Of a DNA stretch of 39,519 nt, positions 6,051-35,648 are shown one piece after another (positions within the stretch are counted from its first letter, which is position 1; every line of letters begins with the position of its first letter). Origin of the DNA: a bacterium. GTDB taxonomy: Bacteria > Patescibacteriota > Minisyncoccia > UBA6257 > JACOXY01. A program made the translations under genes and the position numbers. The notes beneath the pieces are model-generated. The model made no database searches. It saw only the letters and a list, made by a program, of their open reading frames with translations, and was not told where the DNA came from. The stretch is taken from contig JAUXUB010000042.1 in NCBI GenBank assembly GCA_030680955.1, positions 1 to 39,519 of the forward strand, given 5' to 3'.

Positions 6051-6226
6051 TACAGCTCACCTTAGTGAGATGCAACGAGTCGTGGCTTGTGGCCTTACGA
6101 CTAATACCATTGACCAAATATTAGACTTGGTCGATCGACAAACTTTTTGTATTTAATTAATCCACGGACAGCTTCCGCTACCCGTGCCTTGTTACGACTT
6201 CTGCCATGTCACCGAACTTACCCTAA

Positions 6227-6407
6227 CCCAGCTTGAAATTTATGATTTCAAGCTGGAAAACTCTAAACTCTAATATCTAAACTCTAAACAAATGGGAAAT
6301 AAATTCTCAAAACTCAAAACTTTGAATTTTGGAATTTGAGATTGTTTAGGATTTAGGATTTCGATTTTAGGATTTCCCAGCTTAAAGTTCACAAACTTTA
6401 AGCTGGG
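6227..6407 (-). other. about 180-nt expansion at the tip of 16S helix 44
   Basis: It lies between the CCGCCCGTCAC region and AAGTCGTAACAAGG. Two CCCAGCTT..AAGCTGGG hairpins flank a hairpin of CTCTAAA / TTTAGGA 7-nt units. Confidence 0.75.
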
Positions 6408-6488
6408 CTTCAGGTATTCCCGGCTTCCTTGCAGTGACGGGCGGTGAGTACAAGATCCGAGAACGTATTCACCGCGCCATAGCTGATG

Positions 6489-6519
<31 letters not shown>

Positions 6520-6670
6520 GCGAGTTGCAGCCTCCAATCCGAACTGGGGCCAGATTTATGGGATTAGCTCCGGCTTGCGCCTTGGCAACCCTTTGTTCTG
6601 ACCATTGTAGCACGTGTGTAGCCCAGGACATCAGAGGGCCACGCTGATTTGACGTCATCCCCGCCTTCCT

Positions 6671-6800
6671 CCCCCCTCTTTGTTCACAAATGCGAAAGCT
6701 GATAGCTATTAGCTTATAGCTTTTAGAAAAAAAACTTTTAAATTCCTAAAAGCTAACAGCTCTAAGCTGAAAGCTTTGCGCTTATGCGCAAAGAGGGGGG
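6671..6800 (-). other. about 130-nt expansion hairpin in the 16S V7 region (helix 39-40 neighbourhood)
   Basis: CCCCCCTCTTTG...CAAAGAGGGGGG closes arms made of AGCTNNT-type 7-nt units. It sits immediately 5' (RNA sense) of GGAGGAAGGCGGGGATGACGTC. Confidence 0.7.
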
Positions 6801-6869
6801 CGGTTCTGTGTGACACTTGTAACACACAGTAGGGGTTGCGCTCGTTACCCCACTTAAGGGAACGTCTCC

Positions 6870-7788
6870 TATTTTTTTTAATCTCTAGATTACTTTAGAG
6901 TTAAGACTATACCTTCATCCCTCTCCACGCATGGGGAGGGAGCTGGCGTGTTAGCTAGAAAAACAATTGTTTATTTTTCTAACTCCTCCCTACTACGCCT
7001 TCGGCGAATAGGGAAAGTCGTTACAGGGTCTGGAAGTTTATATCGCATACTAGGAATGATATGAGGTAAAATTACCTCAAGAAATTTATTGTGTGAATTT
7101 TTTCTGATTGTTAGCTTTTTATTACTTCCTATCACTGTCTCAATGCCAAATTGTTCTAATAGGACATTTTGTACTCTTTGCATACTCAATAGATCGAAGC
7201 AGTCGGTTGATATTATAACTTTTTCCCCAGTCCAACAACCATCATCCATATACCAAACTGCTAATGACATTGGAGTAAGTTGAAGTCCTTCTGGAAATAC
7301 TTTCTTACCTTCCGAATAAAAAATTGTTCTCCATGGCCTAAAATATTGCCTAAGAACAAAGTATATAGAAGCGTATTGCTTATTACGCTTTTTATATTCT
7401 CTAACAATTTCTCGTGGTGATGCTGGATATGCTAAAGATTTTAACTCATCATATTTCCATATGACATAATCTTTTTGAGCGTTTGATTGCTCAATCCTGA
7501 TTTGTCCCTTAGGACGAATCGTAGCATCTCCTAGCACGCAACCAATTAAAATTTCACGCTGTCTCACGTTTACACGTAATACTAAATTTTTCCTAGCACA
7601 AAGCATTATTGGAACTTCCAAACTTCCCACGGTATTGCCCTCTGGTAACTGGTCACAAGACGCTGGTTTCTGGTACATTTTTTAATTATACCAGTCACCA
7701 GGCATTTAACACCAGCTATCAGTTCGGGTTTCACCGTTATGAGCCAGATTTTCAATCAGGATTACTCCTGAAAGTCTCGAGATTTCAA
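6870..7788 (-). mobile_element. about 919-bp insertion (probable group I-type intron) in 16S near E. coli position ~1070
   Basis: It interrupts CAGCTCGT|..|GAGACGTTCCCTTAAGT. About 110 nt and 100 nt of hairpin-rich non-coding flanks surround a LAGLIDADG ORF. Confidence 0.75.
6971..7678 (-). CDS. LAGLIDADG homing endonuclease (two motifs) inside the 16S insertion
   Basis: Motifs ILIGCVLGDATI and LAVWYMDDGCW are about 100 aa apart. The true start may be the internal Met at MLCARKN. Confidence 0.85.
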   Translation of the reverse strand: MYQKPASCDQLPEGNTVGSLEVPIMLCARKNLVLRVNVRQREILIGCVLGDATIRPKGQIRIEQSNAQKDYVIWKYDELKSLAYPASPREIVREYKKRNKQYASIYFVLRQYFRPWRTIFYSEGKKVFPEGLQLTPMSLAVWYMDDGCWTGEKVIISTDCFDLLSMQRVQNVLLEQFGIETVIGSNKKLTIRKNSHNKFLEVILPHIIPSMRYKLPDPVTTFPIRRRRSREELEK

Positions 7789-7900
7789 GATACGAGCTGA
7801 CGACAACCGTGCAGCACCTGTTCCTAGGTCCTTGAGAGACAACTCGCCTTTCGACAAGTCTTCCTAGAAATTTCAAGCCCTGGTAAGGTTCCTCGTTTAC

Positions 7901-7937
<37 letters not shown>

Positions 7938-7946
7938 TCCCCGTCT

Positions 7947-7978
<32 letters not shown>

Positions 7979-8079
7979 TCCCAGGCGGTCTGTTTAACGC
8001 GTTAGCTAAGCCACTCCGAGGGTCGATACTCGAAATAGCGAACAGACATCGTTTACGGCGTGGACTACAAGGGTATCTA

Positions 8080-8867
8080 CAATTTTGTTACTGAACAAAA
8101 TTGTAATTTTCAATTTTCAAACACCAATTTACAATTAAATTCCAATGCTTAAAACTTAAAATTACAAAATTATTACTGGCATGGACATTTCTACCATGCT
8201 CTGCATGTCGCCATGCAGTTCGGACTATATCTTATCAAAAAAATTATATGGCGAGTGAGATTCACTCGCCTTTTTTTGATCTCAGCGTATAGTCTCTGAG
8301 GGAATCACAAATTTATCTTGGTCTATTTTAAATCTATCTGGAATTAATTGCCTCATCAAGCAACCTATCTGGCGCTAAACGAAGCCCGCACACAGCACAA
8401 TGCGCATGCTTTTTATTTTCCAAACTCGTATTATTTTCAGAACAATTAATATCCATACAAACAGGTCTGGCTACAGTGGACAAACAATTTGAACACCATC
8501 CAGCGATTGTTTCCATGATATCCTCTTTCTTTGTGATCTTCCCTGCTGGTTGTCTGCACCAACAGATTTTTACCTTTCGGTACTGTTGGATACTCAGGGT
8601 TTCCAGCATATAGCTAAGTTATCCGAGCACATAAAGCTTATGTGCTCGGGGACTATTCTCCTCCATACCCATGGAGGGATTATTTTTTTGATTTTTGATT
8701 TCTAGCTGTGGTCAGGTCTTTGTGAAGAAGCTCTCGGAGCTCGATTTGCTTGGTCCGCCTCTGGCGGAAATCGAGCGAGAGCGCAGGTCCGATTTTTCGC
8801 AGGAAAAAATCGAGACCGATTCTAAACAAAGATCTGACCGCAGTAGACGCAAAAAAATAATCAGTTA
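8080..8867 (-). mobile_element. about 788-bp insertion in the 16S 790-loop region (GGAT|TAGATACCC)
   Basis: It splits the GGATTAGATACCC block. The 5' exon can end in U and the insert in G, as in group I introns. It contains many perfect helices, e.g. CCGAGCACATAA..TTATGTGCTCGG and GCTCGATTT..AAATCGAGC. Confidence 0.7.
8334..8609 (-). CDS. Cys-rich small ORF inside the second 16S insertion (function unknown)
   Basis: METIAGWCSNCLSTVARPVCMDINCSENNTSLENKKHAHCAVCGL has CxxC..C..C..CxxC, which looks zinc-ribbon-like. The probable start is the ATG at 8516. I see no LAGLIDADG, GIY-YIG or HNH motif. Confidence 0.35.
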   Translation of the reverse strand: MLETLSIQQYRKVKICWCRQPAGKITKKEDIMETIAGWCSNCLSTVARPVCMDINCSENNTSLENKKHAHCAVCGLRLAPDRLLDEAINSR

Positions 8868-9708
8868 ATCCTTTTTGCTCCCCACGCTTTCGTGTTTCAG
8901 GGTCAGGTGCGCCCCAGTGAACTGCCTTCGCCTTTGGTATTCCGCACGATATCAACGGATTTCACCCCTACACCGTGCGTTCTATTCACCTCTAGCGCCC
9001 TCTAGCACTGCAGTATCCTAAGCAGCCTTACCGTTAGGCGGTAAGATTTAACATAAGACTTGCAGAGCCCCCTACACACCCTTTACGCCCAATAAATCCG
9101 GATAACGCTCGAGGTCTACGTATTACCGCGGGTGCTGGCACGTAGTTACCAACCTCTTTCCATACGCTACTCTGCCGAAGCTTGTTTGCGTATTACCGCA
9201 GTTTACAACCCGAAGGCCTTCTTCCTGCACGCGGCGTCGCTCCATCAGGCTTTCGCCCATTGTGGAATATTCTCGACTGCTGCCTCCCGTAGGAGTACGG
9301 ACCGTTTCTCAGTTCCGTCGTTGGAGATCGGGCTCTCACCCCTCCTACCCGTCATAGCCTTGGTGAGCCATTACCTCACCAACTAGCTGATAGGACCTAA
9401 GCCACTCCCGAAGCGAATTGCTTCTTTAATATTGCTATACCATCGGATATTACCCCATCTTTCAATGGGCTATCTCCGACTTCGGGGTATGTACTAGGGT
9501 ATTACTAACTCGTTCGCCACTATCCGGCGCGTAGCGCCGGAACATTTAAATGTTGAAATATTTAAATATCCCAGTGCTACGCACTGGACCGTTCGACTTG
9601 CATGCCTTATCCACGCCGCCAGCGTTCATCCTGGACCAGGATCAAATCCTCTTTTAAAAATAAATTGCAAAGTACACTCGATCGAGGACCTTGCAATTAA
9701 TCTTTCTA

Positions 9709-16847: not shown

Positions 16848-16905
16848 ATTTATATAGTAATAGAGTATGCGCGTAGATACAAGCTGGGGCGACTTATCTT
16901 ATATG

Positions 16906-25499: not shown

Positions 25500-26465
25500 T
25501 CACAACAAAATTATAACCTCCTCCTCTAAATCAATTCCGAACTTATCTTTAACTTTATTTTTTGCTAACCAAATTAAATTTTGCACATCACCAGACGTCG
25601 CACCCTGCACGTTAACAATAAAATTGGGGTGCTTTGGTGAAATCATAGCGCCGCCATATGACACACCTCGTAGCCCCACTTCGGAAATAAGTCTAGCGGT
25701 GTGGAGTACTGGGAAAAAATCATCCTTTATAAATTGCTGGACTTTTTTATTATTTTTTTGCACTGAAGAAACTGGAACATTTTTAAAGATACTCCCAATA
25801 TTGGGATATTCTAGTGGATGTTTTTCCTTCCTATAATTTATTTTTTCTTGAATAGCTTTTTTTATTAATTTCTTATCACCTTTTTTAAGTTTAAGAGTAG
25901 CCTCCAAAATAATATACTTATTATTTTTTTTAAATATACTATTCCTGTACGCAAATTTACATTCTTTATTTGTAAACTTTATTACTTTAAATTTTAATAA
26001 ATTTTGCCTTGTAGATTTAGAGGGAATTTCTAACACCTTAACCAATAACAAATTATCTTTAATTTCGCCTCCGAAACAACCAGCATTGCCACGTATGGCA
26101 CCACCTAATGTTCCAGGGAGTCCTCCGGCCCACTCTAGTCCCGACAAACCTTCTTTAACTGTATAATTTAAAATATCTGACATTAATGTTCCAGCACCTA
26201 CTACAACATTCCAACATTCTTGAGAATGTTGGAATGTTGTTTTTATAAAATTAAGATTAGGTTTTATAACCACACCATCAAAACCAGAATCGCTAAAAAG
26301 AATATTTGTTCCACCACCTAAAACAAAAATAGAGAGATCTATCTCCCTGGCGTGGATTATAGCTTTTTTTAATTGTGGAAGGCTATTGGCTTCAAAAAAA
26401 TATCTGGCATTCCCACCAATGCGATAGTTACTAAACTTAGCGAGTGAGATATCGCGCTTTAGCAT
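25500..26465 (-). CDS. murB: UDP-N-acetylenolpyruvoylglucosamine reductase
   Basis: ..YRIGGNARYFFE..VLGGGTNILFSD.GFDGVVI.. and C-terminal ..GGAMISPKHPNFIVN... Start taken at the ATG at 26465 (MLKRD), not the track's 26549. Confidence 0.9.
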   Translation of the reverse strand: MLKRDISLAKFSNYRIGGNARYFFEANSLPQLKKAIIHAREIDLSIFVLGGGTNILFSDSGFDGVVIKPNLNFIKTTFQHSQECWNVVVGAGTLMSDILNYTVKEGLSGLEWAGGLPGTLGGAIRGNAGCFGGEIKDNLLLVKVLEIPSKSTRQNLLKFKVIKFTNKECKFAYRNSIFKKNNKYIILEATLKLKKGDKKLIKKAIQEKINYRKEKHPLEYPNIGSIFKNVPVSSVQKNNKKVQQFIKDDFFPVLHTARLISEVGLRGVSYGGAMISPKHPNFIVNVQGATSGDVQNLIWLAKNKVKDKFGIDLEEEVIILL

Positions 26466-26476
26466 AATAGATAGAC

Positions 26477-26619
26477 TTCCGAAGCAGCTCGATAAGACTT
26501 GGGTTCGTTCCCAGCCTTTATGGCCACGGGGGTTTTGACCCCAATTCACATGTTGTAAGAGGGTGCGCGGCCCGCAGCCATAAAGTATGGCAACGAGATT
26601 TGCTCGAGCTGCTTCGGAA
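26477..26619 (-). ncRNA. candidate structured leader/ncRNA closed by a perfect 16-bp stem, 11 nt upstream of the murB ATG
   Basis: TTCCGAAGCAGCTCGA (26477-92) pairs with TCGAGCTGCTTCGGAA (26604-19). The GC-rich interior holds GGGG..CCCC and GGG..CCC hairpins and mutually exclusive pairings of GCCATAAAG. Strand not proven. Confidence 0.4.
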
Positions 26620-26895
26620 ATCTGTATTTATGATAACACAATTATTATAAGAAATCATCAATCCCGGCATTAAATTCTCCCACATCATTAAGTTACTTAA
26701 GGGTGGGGATTGCTTGGCTCTATCCCGCACCAAATCTCGAATACTACTTTATTAAATATATTATTACCTCACGGAAACCGCCTATCGGCTTTACTTCTCT
26801 TAAATCAATATCTATATATAAGATTGATGCGGGATTCTATTGTTTGCGCTCCACTCGACCCGCGCACTATGTGCTTGTTCTCGTGGGCAAACAAT

Positions 26896-27024
26896 GAAAA
26901 AACACAAAACCCCCGTTTAACGGGGGGCCAAGTGCATGCAAATTGGAGTAATTCCTCTACCCGAAAGCAGAGGCATTCACCTACTTACCTAGACAGTATA
27001 CACTATCAATATCTATTTTGTCAA
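26896..27024 (-). ncRNA. candidate ~90-nt small transcript with its own promoter and terminator
   Basis: The minus strand reads TTGACA (27024-19)-18 nt-TATACT (27000-26995). About 65 nt later comes CCCCCG-ttaaa-CGGGGG followed by TTTTGTGTTTTTT (26927-26896). An internal CCTCTGC..GGTAGAGG hairpin is present. Confidence 0.45.
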
Positions 27025-27100: not shown

Positions 27101-29875
27101 TTATGCAGGATTTGGAAGAAATTCTTTCCAATTAAATGGTTTGGGATTTTTAAACCAATCGCGAATAAAATCATAGCGGAGCATTCGGATAAGTACAGGA
27201 CCAGAGTCTGGTCCATCAGATGGAAGGCCAACAAAGCCTACGCCAGTATTATTGGGTGGAAACCCACGATGACCATAAAGATCCGTATGGGTGTGCGCTG
27301 CGCACATGAAGTAAACAGAGTATGGTGTTTCAACTCCAGCGAAAAAGTGTTTATCACCATAAATTCGAAGTGCTACCCGCCCCTTGAGATGCCCGAACGG
27401 GTCACCACGTTGGCGATCGTTATTTACTACTGCACCAAGTGGATCGGCCCAGCTTGAAAGTCGCGCCGGTGAACTCATAAAATTTAGTGCCCATTCATAG
27501 CCACCTGGCGTCTTGACTGTACCTTCGGCAAAATATGCATTGCCCTCGAGAGGAGCTTTTACATGTCGCTTAATAAAGTCAGGACGTTTTTGCCAATAAG
27601 GTAATTGCCCTAACATTGCCCTCAAGTAATAGGCGTAAAAAACACCTTCTGTCAACACTCTTTCAACTGATCTCTCAAAGTGATTTCCTGTGCCAAAGGT
27701 AATGGCGCCAACATCACGGGCATCAAACGGAACGCCAGTTATTTCGCTAAGTCCACGAAAAACAAGTTTGGAGCTCATCGTGTTATTAAGTAAGGCACCG
27801 TAATAATCAATATTGGGATTAATAAGTCGCGCATAGACCTCAAGCATTTGCGGCTGAACCCAGTCAAGACCGCGAACCAAAAATTGACCTAGGTTGAAAG
27901 TCCCGAGACTCATCATAAGTTGCAGGGCTTCGGTAGTATTACCTTTTTTAACAAGACTCGCCATATCTTCTTCGGCTTTAGACCAATAGCGTTCAAGATC
28001 AACATAAGACATTTCCCTTGGATCTGGCTGCTTGTGAGTGTCAAAGTGATTGCCCTGTGTGGGATCATCTGGAACGGCAAAAATATGAACTGGCATATTT
28101 GAGCCCTTAAACAAGTCTTCGCGACGCATCATTTCCATGGATGCTTCAGCCATACCTAAATAGCGTTTATTCTTTGCGTCCCAAACATGCTCACGCGCTC
28201 GACTTCCAAAATGCAAGTCAGTTGCTACATGCGTCCAAATATACTTGGTTTCTGGATACGGATAAAAACCTTTGATTTTCCTATTTCTAGTGTTATCAAG
28301 TTTGGCAATAGGAAACGAGTCCCCAGAAATAATTCCGTTCGCGCATTTTAAAACTAAAACGCCTGGTTTAAATTGTTCATTATTCAAAACCTTAGATATC
28401 GGGTGCACAGACCTAGTAGAATCCTTTAGTTGGTGACGCAAGAAAACTTCGTCAACGCATATTGGAGCAACATGAACCATGCTAGAGTCTCGTTGACCTT
28501 CGGTATAATCGTCACGTCCAACTAGACGATGATTTAAGGCATAAGGATGACAAATCACCACTGTCCTTGGCATTTGATCACGAAAAACCTTAGCCCCATA
28601 TTGATTCGCATAAGAAGCAAGCACATTGTCAGTTACTCTGATATTTCCAGGAATATGAATTTCAATTGGTAAGCTATTGCCAATTTTAATAAAAGCGCTC
28701 CCCTGACTAATTACTTTGCAATTAGGAATCATCTCTTCAAGTTTCTTCACCAAAAGAGCACGGATACGACGACGACGACGTTCTAAATCTTCATCGCTCA
28801 CATTAGTGATAATGGTCATAGCGCGCTGTTGACGAAGTGCCTCTAACTCATTTTCGCACCTACTAACAACTTTATGATCTTCTTCTTTCCCCGCCTTAAT
28901 AAGCTTACGCTTAGTAAAACCAATTCTTGCATCTAATTCTTTTTGCTTCAAAATGGTTATATAACGAACTTCATGATAAGCCGCTGCATTTATAAGCTCT
29001 TCCTCGCAATAGCCCAACACATAGAGAACTTTTCCAGAAAATTCTGGTAAACCATTCGGCCTATGCGTAATTTTAAACCATGCATCAAGAAACGCAAAAA
29101 ATTTTGCTTCCATAGGCATATATATAACTTCATCAAGCGACTTTCCTTTTCGAATACGCCTCGCTTCAGCTTGGTAAGCAGAAGGTAGATGCCCTATCGT
29201 AACATGTAAACCAGATACTTGGGCGCGATAGACCTTAATAGGGCCAGCTGCCTTCTTTAAATCCATTGAGAGTCCGTTTGCAATAACAATCACGACGTCC
29301 CCTCGACGCTCCGCATCTGCCAAAGCACAACGAACTGGATTATCCTTAATGATCCTATTATGTTTAAGACCGATATTTGCGCCATTTGGTATGGCAAGCG
29401 TCCAACTATCTGACGCTGTGACTAGATACGGATGATTGTAACTAGTTTTTGGGAATTCAAAAAGTTCAGCACTAGCAGAAAGTTTTTCGGTAGAAAGCCT
29501 ACCCATACCAGCGATAAACTCTGCCATTGCTTTAGCCTCGCTTACGCCTGTCAAAAACTTTACCTTCTTTTTAAACATCTCTACTGGAACATATGAACAA
29601 TATTTTTCGCGATATCCATCGAGAGGAATCCCATGCTTGATAGCTTTTTTCAAATCTTCAAGTACATCCTTAGTCCAGATTAATTTAGAAATCTCGCGTT
29701 TTAATATTTTTGTAGTAAGCAACAAACCTTTAGGTAAACTGCTTGAAAATTCTCGATTTACAATCTCACAAATTTTTTCTTCGTTGCCTTTCAAAACCAT
29801 GCCATCTCGAATAAGCCTTTGAACTCTATAAGTCAAACCGGATATTTTCCATATATCTTTATTTATTTTCACCAC
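27101..29875 (-). CDS. 924-aa orphan protein; the C-terminal ~385 aa carry metallophosphoesterase-like motifs
   Basis: VATDLHFGS (DxH), VPDDPTQGNHFD, GTGNHFE, GDKHFF, CAAHTHT. I could not assign the N-terminal 540 aa. GTG start with AAGGAGA 8 nt upstream. Confidence 0.6.
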   Translation of the reverse strand: MVKINKDIWKISGLTYRVQRLIRDGMVLKGNEEKICEIVNREFSSSLPKGLLLTTKILKREISKLIWTKDVLEDLKKAIKHGIPLDGYREKYCSYVPVEMFKKKVKFLTGVSEAKAMAEFIAGMGRLSTEKLSASAELFEFPKTSYNHPYLVTASDSWTLAIPNGANIGLKHNRIIKDNPVRCALADAERRGDVVIVIANGLSMDLKKAAGPIKVYRAQVSGLHVTIGHLPSAYQAEARRIRKGKSLDEVIYMPMEAKFFAFLDAWFKITHRPNGLPEFSGKVLYVLGYCEEELINAAAYHEVRYITILKQKELDARIGFTKRKLIKAGKEEDHKVVSRCENELEALRQQRAMTIITNVSDEDLERRRRRIRALLVKKLEEMIPNCKVISQGSAFIKIGNSLPIEIHIPGNIRVTDNVLASYANQYGAKVFRDQMPRTVVICHPYALNHRLVGRDDYTEGQRDSSMVHVAPICVDEVFLRHQLKDSTRSVHPISKVLNNEQFKPGVLVLKCANGIISGDSFPIAKLDNTRNRKIKGFYPYPETKYIWTHVATDLHFGSRAREHVWDAKNKRYLGMAEASMEMMRREDLFKGSNMPVHIFAVPDDPTQGNHFDTHKQPDPREMSYVDLERYWSKAEEDMASLVKKGNTTEALQLMMSLGTFNLGQFLVRGLDWVQPQMLEVYARLINPNIDYYGALLNNTMSSKLVFRGLSEITGVPFDARDVGAITFGTGNHFERSVERVLTEGVFYAYYLRAMLGQLPYWQKRPDFIKRHVKAPLEGNAYFAEGTVKTPGGYEWALNFMSSPARLSSWADPLGAVVNNDRQRGDPFGHLKGRVALRIYGDKHFFAGVETPYSVYFMCAAHTHTDLYGHRGFPPNNTGVGFVGLPSDGPDSGPVLIRMLRYDFIRDWFKNPKPFNWKEFLPNPA

Positions 29876-31841: not shown

Positions 31842-31921
31842 ATCCCATTAGAAGCGCGGCAAATAAAGTTGAGCAAATTACTATGCAGTAGACTCATTCG
31901 ATGATTCGCTTCTAACGGGAT
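31842..31921. repeat. inverted pair of ATCCCGTTAGAAGCG motifs (H5) spanning the reductase stop codon
   Basis: ATCCCATTAGAAGCG (31842-56) pairs with CGCTTCTAACGGGAT (31907-21). The single mismatch is a G-U pair only in the minus (sense) transcript. Confidence 0.8.
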
Positions 31922-34900
31922 TAATTTCTGAATTTACTGGCATAGCAACTGCAGGCAACTCCACTTCGCAAACACCAGATACACAAGCAAGTTCTTTTGC
32001 GCCTTGCGTTTGATCATCTTTCTCGTAAGTTACAATGTAAGAGAAATCTACTTGTGGAAGTTTTGCTGTAAGCTCTTTATATCTTTCTTCTGTTATTTCT
32101 TCATATGGCGCGAGTTGGTAAACGTGGTCTTCTCTTGGCAAAAAAGAAAGTCCTCCCAAGATTGGCCAATTTTTATAAAGCCAGTTTGAAGTTTCAATCC
32201 ATTCATCGTTCCCGACAGAAATTGTTACAGATGGATTATGTTCGGTATAATTTTCTTTAACTTTTTTCCAATACTCAAGTTGTTCAATTGCAGAAAGATC
32301 ATCCTTAAAAATTGAGCCTCCTGGAGCTTTAACTGGAAATTCCAAAACATATGTTGAGGCGGATTCGGAACTTTGCCCAACTTCCGGATAATATGGAAAT
32401 TTCTGCTCTTTTAGCATTTGGAATAGCGAATCGGAAGCCGCAATTCTTACTCTTCTAATATAAAACTTAGCGTGCCTTGGGTGCATTCCAGAAGAGGCAT
32501 CCACCAACTGAGAAACTGTTCCAGATGGCTTAACGCAAGTTATAGATGCAGATCGATTTACACCAAAGCGCTTTGCATATTCTTTGTTTACTTCGATGGC
32601 ATACTCTCTCATTTTGGTAAGAGTTTTAGGATTTCTTGCCGCGTGAGAATCCCACTGCCCTGTAATAGAAACTCCGAGAAGTCTCTCTTCATCACAATTT
32701 TGCTTCCATTCCTTTGAGAGGTATGGAAAATTGGTGAGAGTTGACTGGTATGTACCCAAAATCGTAGCTAATTCGATCTTTCTTAGTAATGTTTTTTCAG
32801 TGTCCTCTGCTCTTGCCACTACTTCTGTTAAATTGCAGAAACTTTTAGAACGAAGGATTATTTCGCCACATTGCAAATTATTAAGATAAACTAATTTTCT
32901 TTTACCATTTCTAGTTTCAGAAGCAAACCCACCTACAAAATAATTGTGATACTCATCAACAGTTCCATTATATACATCTTCATAGCCGATAAATTCAATC
33001 GAGGCGACTTTGTGATTATACATTTCTGCAAATTCTCTTAAATTCTCATAAGTTCTAAATGGTGAACTAACCCTTGCGATTTCTGAACTTATATTATTTT
33101 CTCGGCAAGCACTCAACCATTCAATTTTTAATGGTTCTCTGCCAATCTTAAATTTAAGATCGGTAAAGATTTTGGCTTGTTCCATTCGTCGCAATTCTTT
33201 GCGTTTATGGTGTACTTCATTAAGACGATCAACAAAATCACTTTTTAATTCAGGGTTACTCCATGCGCGTTTTAGTCCGCAAGAAATACCACAGACGCCG
33301 TATTCGCGACGGCCTATACCCGCTTCAAATCGTTTTCCGCAAACCTCACAATTTTTTTTAATGACCACCTGTCCATCTCTTATTTCGCAGTTATAGCCAT
33401 CTTTGGTATATTTTTTGTATGAAGCCACAACCCGCGGATCAGCATCAGCATAGTCAAAGCCAAGTTCTATTGCTGCCCATTTTGCAAGTCCCAGAACGCC
33501 ATCCAAATGATCTCTTCTCCATTTGCTAAAAAATTGCGGCAACCCATTCTCTTTTGCATAGTATATCCAATCCTTATTAGTAAATCTTTTTTCTAGTTTT
33601 TTAGATAAAGCAAGCGCATGTTCTCGTAGTTCTTCATCAGTAATACCAGAAAAGTTTTTATTTCTTGTGCCAGTATTATTTTTAGAATGTTTGGCTCGAT
33701 ATTCTATCCATTTTTGTTCGTTCCATTCAAATAAAGCACGCTTCATTGGATTTGCATCTCCAATCATTAAACTACTATGAAGAGAGTCGTGAGCTTGCTT
33801 ACTTAAAAGCTCAAGATTTTCAGGAGTATTATTTTGAGCATTTCTATCTCGGTGATGTACTACAAAATCTTTTGGTATTTGCGTATTATAATAAAATTCC
33901 GCAATAACACGATGTTCCGCAGCATTATTAGTTTTTCCTGAATTTAACCACCAGTAATCTTGTGACCTAGAATTTGCCTTTGGAAAAATATCTTTAATAG
34001 AAGCTTCGAACTTAGTGATTATCTGTAAACTATCGCCAGGATGTAAATCTTTTACTTGTCTATATTCGCCAGTTTTCAATCTAAATTTATGATTAGCTGT
34101 TGCCTTAACACTCGAACCATCATCAAGCATCATTCTGTATATAGGCTCTCTAAAACCTGTTACACGCGGATTGCGCATATATCTGACAACTGTTTTGTTT
34201 TTATTATCCAAACAAAAAACCGGCACATCTTTCCCTTCTTCAGTAAGCTGCTTTATAGATACGTGACCACGACCATCAGCAACATAAACAAGCGTATCAC
34301 CTGAAACACAAGGATTTGTGCCAGAAGTTGCCAAATGCTTTTTAAACTTCTTAAAACGCCTCTCCGGCATTTGTTTCTCTAGTCCGCCACGGTTAAATAT
34401 TCCCCTCTCTCCAGAACCGCTTTGCGCCAGCGCCAACCATTCCCCCAAAAACTCGGTAGTCGTTGGCTTGGAATTATATGTTGCGGAATTATTAGCCATA
34501 GAACGTTGTGGCTCGGTGAGATAAAATTTGCCAGCCTTGGAATCTCTCATTTTGTCGTCATCTAGGTCTGAGAGTGAAATAAGCGCCGTACGTCTCACTC
34601 CACCCATGACAACCACTTCTCCGATTTTACAAATTACATCATGAACATCAACGGTTGAAAGTCTCTTCCCTTGTCTAGATAATATTTTAGTTCTAGCAAA
34701 ATCTAAAAGTGCACGCAGTGGCTCTGGCCCAGAGCTTCTACCACCCATCGTCATAAGACGAGCTCCAGCGGGACGAAGTGCAGAATAATCAAATTTTACG
34801 TCGTGACCCGAATACCATGTCTTTAATCCATGAGTTAATGCGTCTCCCCAACCTTCTTTGCTATCTTCAATAACGTGGGTTATGAGCATCTTGCCAGTTT

Positions 34901-35648
34901 GGCGTTTTATTATTGGAAGCATTCCAACTGTTTGACTCTCAACCGAAAATCCAACTCCCGCTCCACACATAGATAAATACATAATCTCGGCAAAGTCGGG
35001 AAGCTTTGACGGTGCAATAAAAGAACAATTGTAAGCTGTTACGTTTGTTTTTTTAGCCGCTTTACCTGCAGACCACATAAGTCGCATAGAAGGCATTACT
35101 TCTTGTTTTAAGATTGCTTCTCTAATTTCTTCGCATTCTTTTTCCTTCAATTTATTCCCAAGATTTTCTTTCATAAAATCTATGTAGCGACCAACTGTCT
35201 CTATCCAAGTTTCTCTTCGTCCTTCATCCTCAATCCATCGCGAGTAAGAGCGGTAGTAAATAAATTCTGAAAGTGGGTTTCTAAAATAACTTTTACTCAT
35301 TTGAGCTAATTGCTGGACATGCTCTGGCACATCTTTTACTTTATCGCGCACGTTCGATCGTTCATTTCTATATAAAATGTAAGCTTTTGCAACTTTTGAA
35401 AAATCTGAAAGTATAAGAGACTCTTCAACTAAGTCCTGAATCTCTTCAATATGCGGAACATACTCATTTGGAAACTTTTTTTCTAATTCTTTTATAACGC
35501 TATCTGTTAAAATTCCCGGATCTCGAGAAAGTTCACCCTCGCCAGTTGCTTGCATCGCACGATACACGGCATTATATATTTTTTGGCGGTCAAAAAATAC
35601 CACTCGACCGTCTCGCTTCCTTACTGACTCAAATTTTTGTTTCGACAT
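31881..35648 (-). CDS. nrdJ: class II (B12-dependent) ribonucleotide reductase with an N-terminal ATP-cone, interrupted by an intein
   Basis: ATP-cone-like VRKRDGRVVFFDRQKI. The active-site TNP|C..GEIxL..FCNL block is split by 480 aa. Mature size would be about 775 aa. Confidence 0.85.
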   Translation of the reverse strand: MSKQKFESVRKRDGRVVFFDRQKIYNAVYRAMQATGEGELSRDPGILTDSVIKELEKKFPNEYVPHIEEIQDLVEESLILSDFSKVAKAYILYRNERSNVRDKVKDVPEHVQQLAQMSKSYFRNPLSEFIYYRSYSRWIEDEGRRETWIETVGRYIDFMKENLGNKLKEKECEEIREAILKQEVMPSMRLMWSAGKAAKKTNVTAYNCSFIAPSKLPDFAEIMYLSMCGAGVGFSVESQTVGMLPIIKRQTGKMLITHVIEDSKEGWGDALTHGLKTWYSGHDVKFDYSALRPAGARLMTMGGRSSGPEPLRALLDFARTKILSRQGKRLSTVDVHDVICKIGEVVVMGGVRRTALISLSDLDDDKMRDSKAGKFYLTEPQRSMANNSATYNSKPTTTEFLGEWLALAQSGSGERGIFNRGGLEKQMPERRFKKFKKHLATSGTNPCVSGDTLVYVADGRGHVSIKQLTEEGKDVPVFCLDNKNKTVVRYMRNPRVTGFREPIYRMMLDDGSSVKATANHKFRLKTGEYRQVKDLHPGDSLQIITKFEASIKDIFPKANSRSQDYWWLNSGKTNNAAEHRVIAEFYYNTQIPKDFVVHHRDRNAQNNTPENLELLSKQAHDSLHSSLMIGDANPMKRALFEWNEQKWIEYRAKHSKNNTGTRNKNFSGITDEELREHALALSKKLEKRFTNKDWIYYAKENGLPQFFSKWRRDHLDGVLGLAKWAAIELGFDYADADPRVVASYKKYTKDGYNCEIRDGQVVIKKNCEVCGKRFEAGIGRREYGVCGISCGLKRAWSNPELKSDFVDRLNEVHHKRKELRRMEQAKIFTDLKFKIGREPLKIEWLSACRENNISSEIARVSSPFRTYENLREFAEMYNHKVASIEFIGYEDVYNGTVDEYHNYFVGGFASETRNGKRKLVYLNNLQCGEIILRSKSFCNLTEVVARAEDTEKTLLRKIELATILGTYQSTLTNFPYLSKEWKQNCDEERLLGVSITGQWDSHAARNPKTLTKMREYAIEVNKEYAKRFGVNRSASITCVKPSGTVSQLVDASSGMHPRHAKFYIRRVRIAASDSLFQMLKEQKFPYYPEVGQSSESASTYVLEFPVKAPGGSIFKDDLSAIEQLEYWKKVKENYTEHNPSVTISVGNDEWIETSNWLYKNWPILGGLSFLPREDHVYQLAPYEEITEERYKELTAKLPQVDFSYIVTYEKDDQTQGAKELACVSGVCEVELPAVAMPVNSEINPVRSESSNESTA
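32871..34310 (-). mobile_element. 480-aa intein (residues 447-926) carrying an HNH endonuclease domain
   Basis: Block A CVSGDTLVYV, block B KATANHKF, HNH VVHHRDRNAQNNTPENLELLSKQAHDSLH, block F VYNGTVDEYHNYFVGG. It ends ..LNNLQ|CGEI. Confidence 0.85.

Follow-up and report, generated by a model that had tools for sequence, protein, structure and literature searches.

Positions 1 to 39,519 of contig JAUXUB010000042.1 (GenBank assembly GCA_030680955.1), the whole stretch of DNA analysed here and called the window below, come from a bacterium of the Patescibacteriota (Minisyncoccia; UBA6257; JACOXY01) and hold, just upstream of murB, a GC-rich hairpin of 143 nt (26477-26619). The hairpin is real: the murB sense strand carries it as a structured RNA within the murB 5′ leader. 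That the conserved core of this hairpin would pair with a neighbouring, co-evolving small RNA (sRNA) is well supported by compensatory changes over more than 50 loci, including those of the window lineage. We think it probable, though well short of certain, that the element is an sRNA-responsive murB leader, a clamped and lineage-specific version of a hairpin that forms the leader of murB, or of murB-hpf-secA. To our knowledge, the bacteria of the Candidate Phyla Radiation (CPR; Patescibacteria), whose genomes are tiny, have very few recognised regulators and almost no described regulatory RNAs.

The outer clamp of the element, TTCCGAAGCAGCTCGA, stands exactly at 26477-26492 on the plus strand and its reverse complement at 26604-26619, giving a perfect 16-bp stem; for a perfect inverted repeat of this length with a loop of at most 150 nt, the chance expectation is ~0.003 per window of such composition. 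The murB-sense RNA (26619-26477) reads UUCCGAAGCAGCUCGA ... UCGAGCUGCUUCGGAA with both arms exact, and the inverted repeat reaches 20 nt (26473-26492 / 26604-26623, 95%), its sole mismatch being a U·G in the minus-strand RNA. A first-pass annotation, made from the sequence alone, had described a GC-rich 143-nt element with a perfect 16-bp stem whose 3′ arm ends 11 nt before the murB ATG. This description is accurate: the GC content is 0.538 against 0.382 in the whole window, and the ATG lies at 26465-26463, 11 nt beyond the 3′ arm. The minus strand, which is the murB sense, has a minimum free energy (MFE) of -74.7 kcal/mol (z -8.4; 0/200 shuffles as good), and the plus strand folds more weakly (-66.8 kcal/mol, z -5.8) because several pairs are G·U. 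The fold is a single rod that runs from the outer clamp, P0, through a short helix and the 15-bp stem P1 to an apical core (Table 1). The annotation's distal pairing CUUUAUGGC...GCCAUAAAG turned out to be P1, a conserved and covarying stem; its GGGG-UCAAAA-CCCC and GGG-AACGAA-CCC hairpins can be drawn, but fall outside the MFE fold and are unconserved beyond the closest relatives.

Related loci were those of the nearest homologues and, from a MurB-based scan with one genome per species, 80 loci from metagenome-assembled genomes of Parcubacteria/Paceibacteria; the closest homologue of the window's MurB is 62% identical to it. Upstream of murB, nearly all of the 80 loci share the consensus (variable stem) RAGAGCACUC RUUCAAYACAAAYAGAAYY GGAGGUCACCAC (variable stem). 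In a MAFFT alignment of 121 non-identical leader copies both GCACUC and GGAGGUCAC are invariant, and the junction GCA ... GUCACCAC is present in 121/121. The surrounding stem varies while keeping its pairing: in the unfitted alignment 77% of P1 cells are paired, compared with 64% in column shuffles (0/500 as high) and 41-52% with slid partners, and changes on both sides are seen at all 14 pairs. Fitting the alignment to a model raises the paired cells to 86.5%, with one P2 pair split between AU (44) and GC (15). A covariance model of the leader alignment built without the window and without its relative L001, R1, matches 68/80 of the related murB loci. The conservation and covariation upstream of murB for which the first-pass annotation had proposed to look are both there, the latter in abundance.

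With filters off, the top match of R1 in the window is the element itself (26516-26584, minus strand; 18.5 bits, E 0.0015), and the runner-up scores 11.1 bits. In a stepwise alignment, A5, of the window with L204, L001, L205, L003 and L002, 98.8% of P1 cells are paired and 9/16 pairs are double-changed, as in the replacement of CUUUAUGGCUGCGGG/CCCGUGGCCAUAAAG in the window by CCAAAAUGGUCGCGAG/CUCGCGACCAUUUUGG in L205. The window has a covarying P1 around a core of ~40 nt, and it has this in a murB leader downstream of an sRNA. It is well supported that its element is a divergent member of a conserved, previously uncatalogued leader motif of Parcubacteria/Paceibacteria that consists of P1, an internal loop, P2 and an invariant core. 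By these alignments the conserved family stem is the inner stem, P1, and the 16-bp clamp is a lineage-specific addition. P0 is confined to the sub-lineage of the window, L204, L001 and L205, where it is conserved in sequence and does not covary; the window and L204 have P0 arms that are 100% identical, compared with ~70% for their murB DNA and ~60% for the MurB protein.

Some leaders are elaborated in other ways. Those of L008, L020, L023 and L205 are nested, with a whole module inside the P2 loop of another and both sRNA target halves kept at each level; the interval from AAUUG to GAGGUCACC can also be interrupted by an additional hairpin, CCCGC...GCGGG. A structured insert of ~270 nt, which we call hairpin B, lies inside the leader clamp of L001 (2697-2957) and of L204 (1093-1365), on opposite sides of the module, and a second, inverted copy occupies the spacer of L204 (545-830). 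Hairpin B has no Rfam match and resembles a small mobile element; the window is without it.

The predicted partner sRNA is placed between the terminator of an upstream gene of 924 aa and the murB leader, and its predicted fold begins with a hairpin at the 5′ end, continues single-stranded and finishes in a terminator. Homologous units with their parts in identical order are found in L001, L002, L003, L204 and L205. The promoter in the relatives has a -35 box and an extended -10 box, TGnTATAAT, followed after 6 nt by a +1 G, which is the first base of the conserved 5′ segment GAAUGAGUG; the -10 box has at least 5/6 matches to TATAAT in 45/51 relatives and the extended TG in 37/51. All pairs of the central hairpin covary (9/9). 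Profile hidden Markov models locate an sRNA upstream on the same strand for 112/148 leaders with enough flank, at a distance of 17 to 913 nt (median ~85 nt), and R2, a covariance model of the sRNA, also finds it beside leaders ahead of hpf, secA, rplC and pfkB. The sRNA gene is on the opposite strand in L031 and L052, and the leader is inverted in L018, L025 and L034. Between the window and L204 the sRNA region is 91.7% identical, compared with ~70% for murB DNA.

The surroundings of the sRNA gene in the window have features of their own. The spacer between sRNA and leader contains a long hairpin, AUCCCGCAUCAA ... UUGGUGCGGGAU (26722..26835, minus strand; inverted repeat I6 and fold), that has a counterpart with compensatory changes in L204 and whose flanks, CAAACAAUAGAAU(CCCGC..GCGGG)AUAGAGCC, resemble the split or nested leader module of L008 and L020. 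Upstream, the 924-aa open reading frame (ORF; 27101-29875, minus strand) is without Pfam match and is a conserved neighbour of the cassette, with 924 aa in L001 too; in L204 its position is occupied by an ORF that likewise has no Pfam match.

Two parts of the sRNA are complementary to the leader. Its 5′ end, GAAUGAGUGC, is complementary to the leader segment GCACUCAUUC, and its 3′ arm to the P2 loop and the 3′ strand of P2, often on through GGAGG. Arms and targets are in permuted order, the 5′ arm matching the 5′ half of the core and the 3′ arm the 3′ half. The two RNAs change together, and the compensatory classes include CUGUUUG/CAAACAG, CUAUUUGUG/CACAAAUAG, CUUCUGUG/CACAGAAG, CAAAUUGUG/CACAAUUUG, CUAUAUGUU/AACAUAUAG, GAGUGAGUA/UACUCACUC and GAGUGAGUG/CACUCACUC. 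Some duplexes between sRNA and leader extend over 16-17 bp (for example, -22.3 kcal/mol in L014 and -22.5 kcal/mol in L128). The pairing was tested by duplex energies and partner permutation; energies were used instead of column counts because the register of the 3′ arm shifts by 1-3 nt between sub-lineages. Over 55 pairs, the cognate 3′-arm duplex has a mean of -9.57 kcal/mol and the non-cognate one of -7.05 kcal/mol, a value for cognate partners that 0/10,000 partner permutations reach.

The same complementarity is seen in the window, where CUCCAAUUUGCAUG pairs with CAUGUGAAUUGGGG over 14 bp including wobbles, and in its closest relatives, where CUCCAAUUCACAA pairs with UUGUGAAUUGGGG (L001) and GUAAGUGGG pairs perfectly with CCCACUUAC (L205, whose 3′ arm matches at 13/14). 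The window's duplexes have energies of -12.9 kcal/mol for the 5′ arm and -27.7 kcal/mol for the 3′ arm, and apart from the antisense of the sRNA gene itself, no sequence in the 39.5 kb suits the 3′ arm as well as the core does (tiles: mean -10.7, sd 4.0 kcal/mol). A pattern search for a further target of the sRNA arms in the window gave none besides the leader core. Complementarity persists with the divergent sRNA gene of L031 and with the inverted leader of L025, so the sRNA must be capable of acting in trans. As its two helices with the leader cross each other, nested folding programs cannot represent the complex of sRNA and leader.

The leader appears to have a promoter of its own. In 30/30 loci with short spacers a -10 box, mostly TATACT and often TGnTATACT, precedes the base of P1 by 5-8 nt, and in L204 and L001 the leader stem has TATTAT 7 nt ahead of its base. 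Because the leader has this separate -10 box before P1, the sRNA gene and the leader are predicted to be two tandem transcription units. For the window, the first-pass annotation had proposed the promoter TTAATG-18-TATAAT (26673-26644), which is there in the sequence but was left unscored by a consensus scan; by analogy with the relatives, TATCAT, which precedes the base of the stem by 7 nt, has at least as good a claim to be the -10 box as TATAAT.

At the other end of the leader the family has two forms. One is seen ahead of murB as well as of hpf, in at least 17 relatives, where the 3′ strand of P1 runs into the 5′ half of an intrinsic terminator of 12-16 bp. Of the two conformers the terminator is by far the more stable, with -48.0 kcal/mol against -22.9 kcal/mol for the P1 hairpin in L022 and -64.8 against -25.2 kcal/mol in L078, and read-through would therefore need something that holds P1. 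Other relatives lack a terminator; their leader is a rod of 20-30 bp, almost perfectly paired, whose end comes close to the start codon. The window is of the rod type: the AUG comes 8-12 nt after the end of P0, the sequence behind P0 is UCUAUCUAUU, and no terminator competes with P1. The tract after the P0 arm reads GUCUUUUUAAU / UCUUUUUAAU in L001, CUUUUUCAUUG in L205 and AUCUAUUUUUAUUAUG / AUCUAUUUUUAUU in L204.

These observations suggest how the cassette might work. The functional centre would be the apical module of P1, the conserved internal loop and the small hairpin P2. An sRNA of ~90 nt, made from its own strong promoter and ended by its own terminator, would pair with this module at two places, its 5′-terminal nucleotides with the 5′ half of the core and its single-stranded 3′ arm with the P2 loop, the 3′ strand of P2 and the GGRGG box. 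Because the two sRNA arms are in permuted order, we infer that the complex is a four-way junction of P1, H1 (formed by the 5′ arm), the central hairpin of the sRNA and H2 (formed by the 3′ arm). In the free RNAs the same segments would be held in imperfect helices, namely P2 of the leader and the base of the 5′ hairpin of the sRNA, and a single-stranded seed on both RNAs would permit strand exchange. Formation of the complex would replace P2 and alter the hold on P1, and in relatives with a terminator the state of P1 would decide between read-through and termination. Since read-through needs P1 to be held, an antiterminator role of the sRNA is favoured, and the sRNA most likely locks P1. In the window the same switch would most likely affect translation initiation through ribosome access, a weak terminator activity of P0, or how the transcript is processed and how stable it is (RNase III or 5′-end-dependent). 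The steps downstream of pairing are inferred, and for the clamped variant in the window they are uncertain.

Several points weigh against this account. Both transcripts, sRNA and leader, and their ends are predicted. R2 gives the window's sRNA only 7.7 bits (E 3.3, not significant), compared with 34.6 and 29.0 bits for the bridging copies of L002 and L003, and its membership in the family would rest on synteny, part order, promoter geometry and complementarity rather than on this score. Similarly, the R1 match leaves a 33-nt stretch of the core unaligned, so the window's score comes mainly from P1. The core reads GCGCACCCUC...GGGGUCAAAAC where the family consensus is RAGAGCACUC - P2 - GGAGGUCACCAC, and the argument for its homology passes through the intermediates L001, L002, L003, L204 and L205 in A5. 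The pairing of the window's 5′ arm is broken by a 2x2 internal loop and reaches only -12.9 kcal/mol, and the permutation test of cognate against non-cognate partners does not remove shared ancestry. With no terminator competing with P1 in the window, the mechanism of the relatives is not directly transferable. Finally, the invariance of GCACUC and GGAGGUCAC goes beyond what pairing with a variable sRNA requires, and a further partner is therefore likely. Conceivably, though we rate this as a long shot, sRNA and leader form a two-piece sensor in which their junction unites the invariant unpaired GAGAGCA and GUCACCAC of the leader with conserved junction nucleotides of the sRNA, and only the complex binds a signal. 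The signal could be a metabolite, a protein or the ribosome. Such a sensor could be called a split riboswitch, or else a device akin to the T-box that has an sRNA of its own, and it would set murB-hpf-secA expression across an entire CPR class with few known regulators.

The same invariance can be read in another way, as the mark of a cis-acting aptamer whose P1, loop and P2 bind a metabolite or protein, with P1 controlling the terminator or, in the window, ribosome access; the sRNA would then be an accessory antagonist, or its pairing secondary. The leader is indeed built like a small riboswitch, with variable P1 and P2 around an invariant GCA ... GUCACCAC (121/121), its terminator shares the 3′ strand of P1, and the invariance of GGAGGUCAC is stronger than pairing with the sRNA explains. 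We nevertheless consider an aptamer unlikely. Even canonical members belong to no Rfam class, almost all of the core is covered by an sRNA that evolves together with it, this sRNA is found beside the leader whatever the gene context, and murB, hpf, secA and rny have no obvious common metabolite. The first-pass annotation had suggested a riboswitch-like RNA, and part of this was borne out, since the RNA is structured, absent from Rfam and conserved, but nothing indicates a metabolite ligand. The most economical 'ligand' would be an RNA, because the core is complementary, with compensatory changes, to the sRNA at 26988-26900. The UDP-sugars offered as candidate ligands are weakened further by the usual operon, which is murB-hpf-secA and not murB alone.

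It is also conceivable, if quite improbable, that the 'sRNA' is the 5′ domain of one long leader, its terminator a first attenuator and the complementarity an intramolecular pseudoknot in read-through transcripts. The two parts are nearly always adjacent on the same strand with a median gap of ~85 nt, and the permuted order of pairing is a pseudoknot topology. However, the first unit is closed by a strong terminator with a long U tract, a separate -10 box precedes the leader stem in all 30 short-spacer loci, the gap spans 17 to 913 nt, and the sRNA can be on the opposite strand (L031, L052) or the leader inverted (L018, L025, L034), with complementarity kept in the two of these loci that were read for it, L031 and L025. 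A constitutive rod that does not switch, and serves as a 5′ stabiliser, an RNase III site or, together with the U-rich tract after P0, a leaky terminator, would fit a transcript that probably starts at the stem base, the near-perfect 20-30-bp rods of many relatives and the U-rich sequence after P0 in all four close relatives. We hold it to be very improbable as a full explanation, as it leaves the invariant core, the co-evolving sRNA and the mutually exclusive terminator of the relatives unexplained; it may describe the output step instead of an alternative. The first-pass annotation had itself raised the possibility of a mobile palindrome, here a remnant of such a palindrome or of a miniature inverted-repeat transposable element that has terminal inverted repeats of 16 bp. 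In its favour, the two arms do repeat each other perfectly in inverted orientation, and a repeated insert of ~270 nt does invade the leaders of L001 and L204, but this origin is almost certainly wrong: the element has one copy in the 39.5-kb window and no match in viral contigs, it keeps a fixed site between sRNA and murB in genomes with MurB only ~60% identical, its covariation, with G·U pairs included, is that of an RNA, and neither a target-site duplication nor a flanking direct repeat is evident.

The features of the cassette in the window are collected in Table 1.

Table 1. Features of the sRNA-murB cassette in the window, in the order of transcription (minus strand).
Feature	Position	Strand	Sequence or basis
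sRNA promoter TTGACA-18-TATACT	26995..27024	-	11/12 consensus positions
Predicted sRNA, ~90 nt	26900..26988	-	Promoter and terminator prediction, fold
sRNA 5′ arm	26988-26978	-	GUAAGUAGGUG
sRNA central hairpin	26973-26954	-	Fold
sRNA 3′ arm	26950-26935	-	UACUCCAAUUUGCAUG; single-stranded in fold
sRNA intrinsic terminator	26926-26910	-	Terminator scan; U tract to ~26900
Candidate leader -10 boxes	TATAAT 26649-26644, TATCAT 26635-26630	-	Sequence; analogy with relatives
P0 5′ arm	26604..26623	-	AGAU-UUCCGAAGCAGCUCGA; inverted repeat and MFE fold
P1 5′ strand, conserved family stem	26571..26585	-	CUUUAUGGCUGCGGG; MFE fold, aligned by R1
Core: junction, P2 hairpin, junction	26531..26570	-	Alignment to relatives
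Target of sRNA 5′ arm within core	26566-26554	-	GCACCCUCUUACA
Target of sRNA 3′ arm within core	26552-26538	-	CAUGUGAAUUGGGGU
P1 3′ strand	26516..26530	-	CCCGUGGCCAUAAAG; MFE fold, R1, covariation
P0 3′ arm	26473..26492	-	UCGAGCUGCUUCGGAA-GUCU, then U-rich AUCUAUU, then ATG
murB, UDP-N-acetylenolpyruvoylglucosamine reductase	25500..26465	-	Pfam MurB_C 2e-27, FAD_binding_4 7e-16

Homologues of MurB align from residue 1, that is, from the ATG at 26465, and an N-terminally extended MurB from the GTG at 26549 was rejected for this reason. The leader explains why gene callers occasionally extend murB upstream, as in the window's extended ORF from that GTG. An unbiased scan of metagenome contigs with the leader pattern gave 120 loci, among which MurB is the next gene in 45 and ~37 are genuine leaders, with a stem and an AT-rich interior, before other genes; the remainder are GC-rich chance matches without a stem. 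The order of downstream genes was tallied over 160 leaders: murB-hpf-secA follows in 86, murB-hpf in 12, murB-secA in 4, murB alone in 16 (mostly truncated contigs), hpf-secA in 14, hpf in 2, secA in 5, RNase Y in 3, pfkB in 1, rplC in 1, and no recognised gene in 16. By this tally it is a conserved operon, murB-hpf-secA, that has the cassette as its regulatory region. In the window lineage, a PIG-L deacetylase and a glycosyltransferase come after murB instead. Viral contigs contained no copy of the leader motif.

In L025 (2239-2423), and also in L018 and L034, the inverted leader faces the gene for RNase Y (rny, L025:642-2132, minus strand), with the sRNA gene antisense inside the rny 5′ untranslated region, and murB has no leader of its own in these genomes. 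Elsewhere in the window, the 16S rRNA gene (6163-9649, minus strand) aligns to the bacterial model as three pieces; large insertions separate these, and one insertion contains an ORF of 235 aa (6971-7678, minus strand); rRNA introns are known in CPR bacteria, and the split gene is consistent with these. A ribonucleotide reductase gene (31881-35648, minus strand) carries an intein bearing an HNH endonuclease domain.

The first-pass annotation could place the element by eye in none of the RNA classes that it listed, and the database agrees. With Rfam 15 at gathering thresholds the element had no match, and a search relaxed to E up to 10 yielded only noise; the loci of 13 relatives gave 0 matches and the canonical member L009 only terminator look-alikes. 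A full-text literature search found no description of the motif or of its sequences. Four likenesses noticed by eye were dropped as unsupported by Rfam: an SRP-like GAAGCAGC in the clamp, an ACAGAA like that of P4 in RNase P, a hairpin-ribozyme-like AAACAGA..GUCA and a T-box-like AAUUGG..ACC. Membership in the T-box class was rejected, there being no Rfam T-box match and a partner that is not a tRNA; the only tRNA that ARAGORN reports in the window is tRNA-Ala at 16905. A leader peptide (MNW(G/R)..) was rejected because its ORF occurs only in the window, L001, L002 and L003, and canonical cores have no AUG or GUG there. A cis-encoded antisense RNA of the pT181/pIP501 type was rejected as well, since the sRNA is upstream on the same strand and only its two arms are complementary; a helix mutually exclusive with a terminator, which is a trait of that type, is found in at least 17 relatives, and the window has only P0 and the U-rich tract. 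The leader core GCACUCAUUUAACAACAAA is loosely like boxA, GCUCUUUAACAA, a resemblance that needs two insertions and is a lead towards possible antitermination of the NusB/NusE type. The rRNA leader of the window has a boxA-like CGCUCUUUGAGC at ~9752-9741 (minus strand).

The cassette described here would place a deeply conserved RNA-RNA pair ahead of an operon that joins peptidoglycan precursors (murB), ribosome hibernation (hpf) and secretion (secA), all of them linked to growth. Circularly permuted antisense pairing and tight linkage on the same strand are both unusual for chromosomal sRNAs. Two covariance models now define the cassette, together with upwards of 120 leaders and over 50 cognate pairs, which amount to natural compensatory mutants, and this is definition enough for direct tests. 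The models also provide two new RNA families for the annotation of Parcubacteria genomes. Permuted pairs of sRNA and leader could also become orthogonal parts for the synthetic control of termination.

Several well-characterised systems share features with this cassette, and what we say of them below is established knowledge of those systems. The raiA motif (RF03072) is likewise a conserved structured RNA near the gene of a ribosome hibernation factor, but it is found in Firmicutes/Actinobacteria and has a different, large structure, and the leader described here has no Rfam match. GlmZ/GlmY and glmS of Enterobacteria also combine a base-pairing sRNA with the structured leader of a gene for peptidoglycan precursors. 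GlmZ, however, is unlinked to its target, depends on Hfq and opens a hairpin that masks the Shine-Dalgarno sequence; there is no homology, and the operon here adds hpf and secA. The closest likeness is to T-boxes, as the leader would read a separate RNA through two base-pairing contacts, P1 of the relatives shares a strand with an intrinsic terminator and would decide read-through, and there are apparently transcriptional and translational forms. The partner here is a dedicated, adjacent sRNA and not a tRNA, though, and the leader has no Stem I, specifier or T-box sequence.

The topology proposed for the complex has a counterpart in CopA-CopT of plasmid R1, where pairing starts between a loop and a single strand, proceeds by strand exchange and yields two intermolecular helices beside two intramolecular ones. 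CopA differs in being cis-encoded and fully complementary to its target, and what it blocks is the translation of a leader peptide; the junction here is proposed from sequence only. The proposed control of the terminator is also like the antisense-RNA attenuation of rep leaders in pT181, pIP501 and pAMbeta1 and in synthetic derivatives of these, the small transcription activating RNAs (STARs), in which a small RNA pairs with a nascent leader hairpin, the pairing selects between a terminator and a competing 'preemptor' helix, and regulator and target are genetically linked. In those plasmids the regulator is a counter-transcript. Here the sRNA lies upstream on the same strand, and is sometimes divergent, it would pair through two short permuted arms, and both it and its housekeeping targets are chromosomal.

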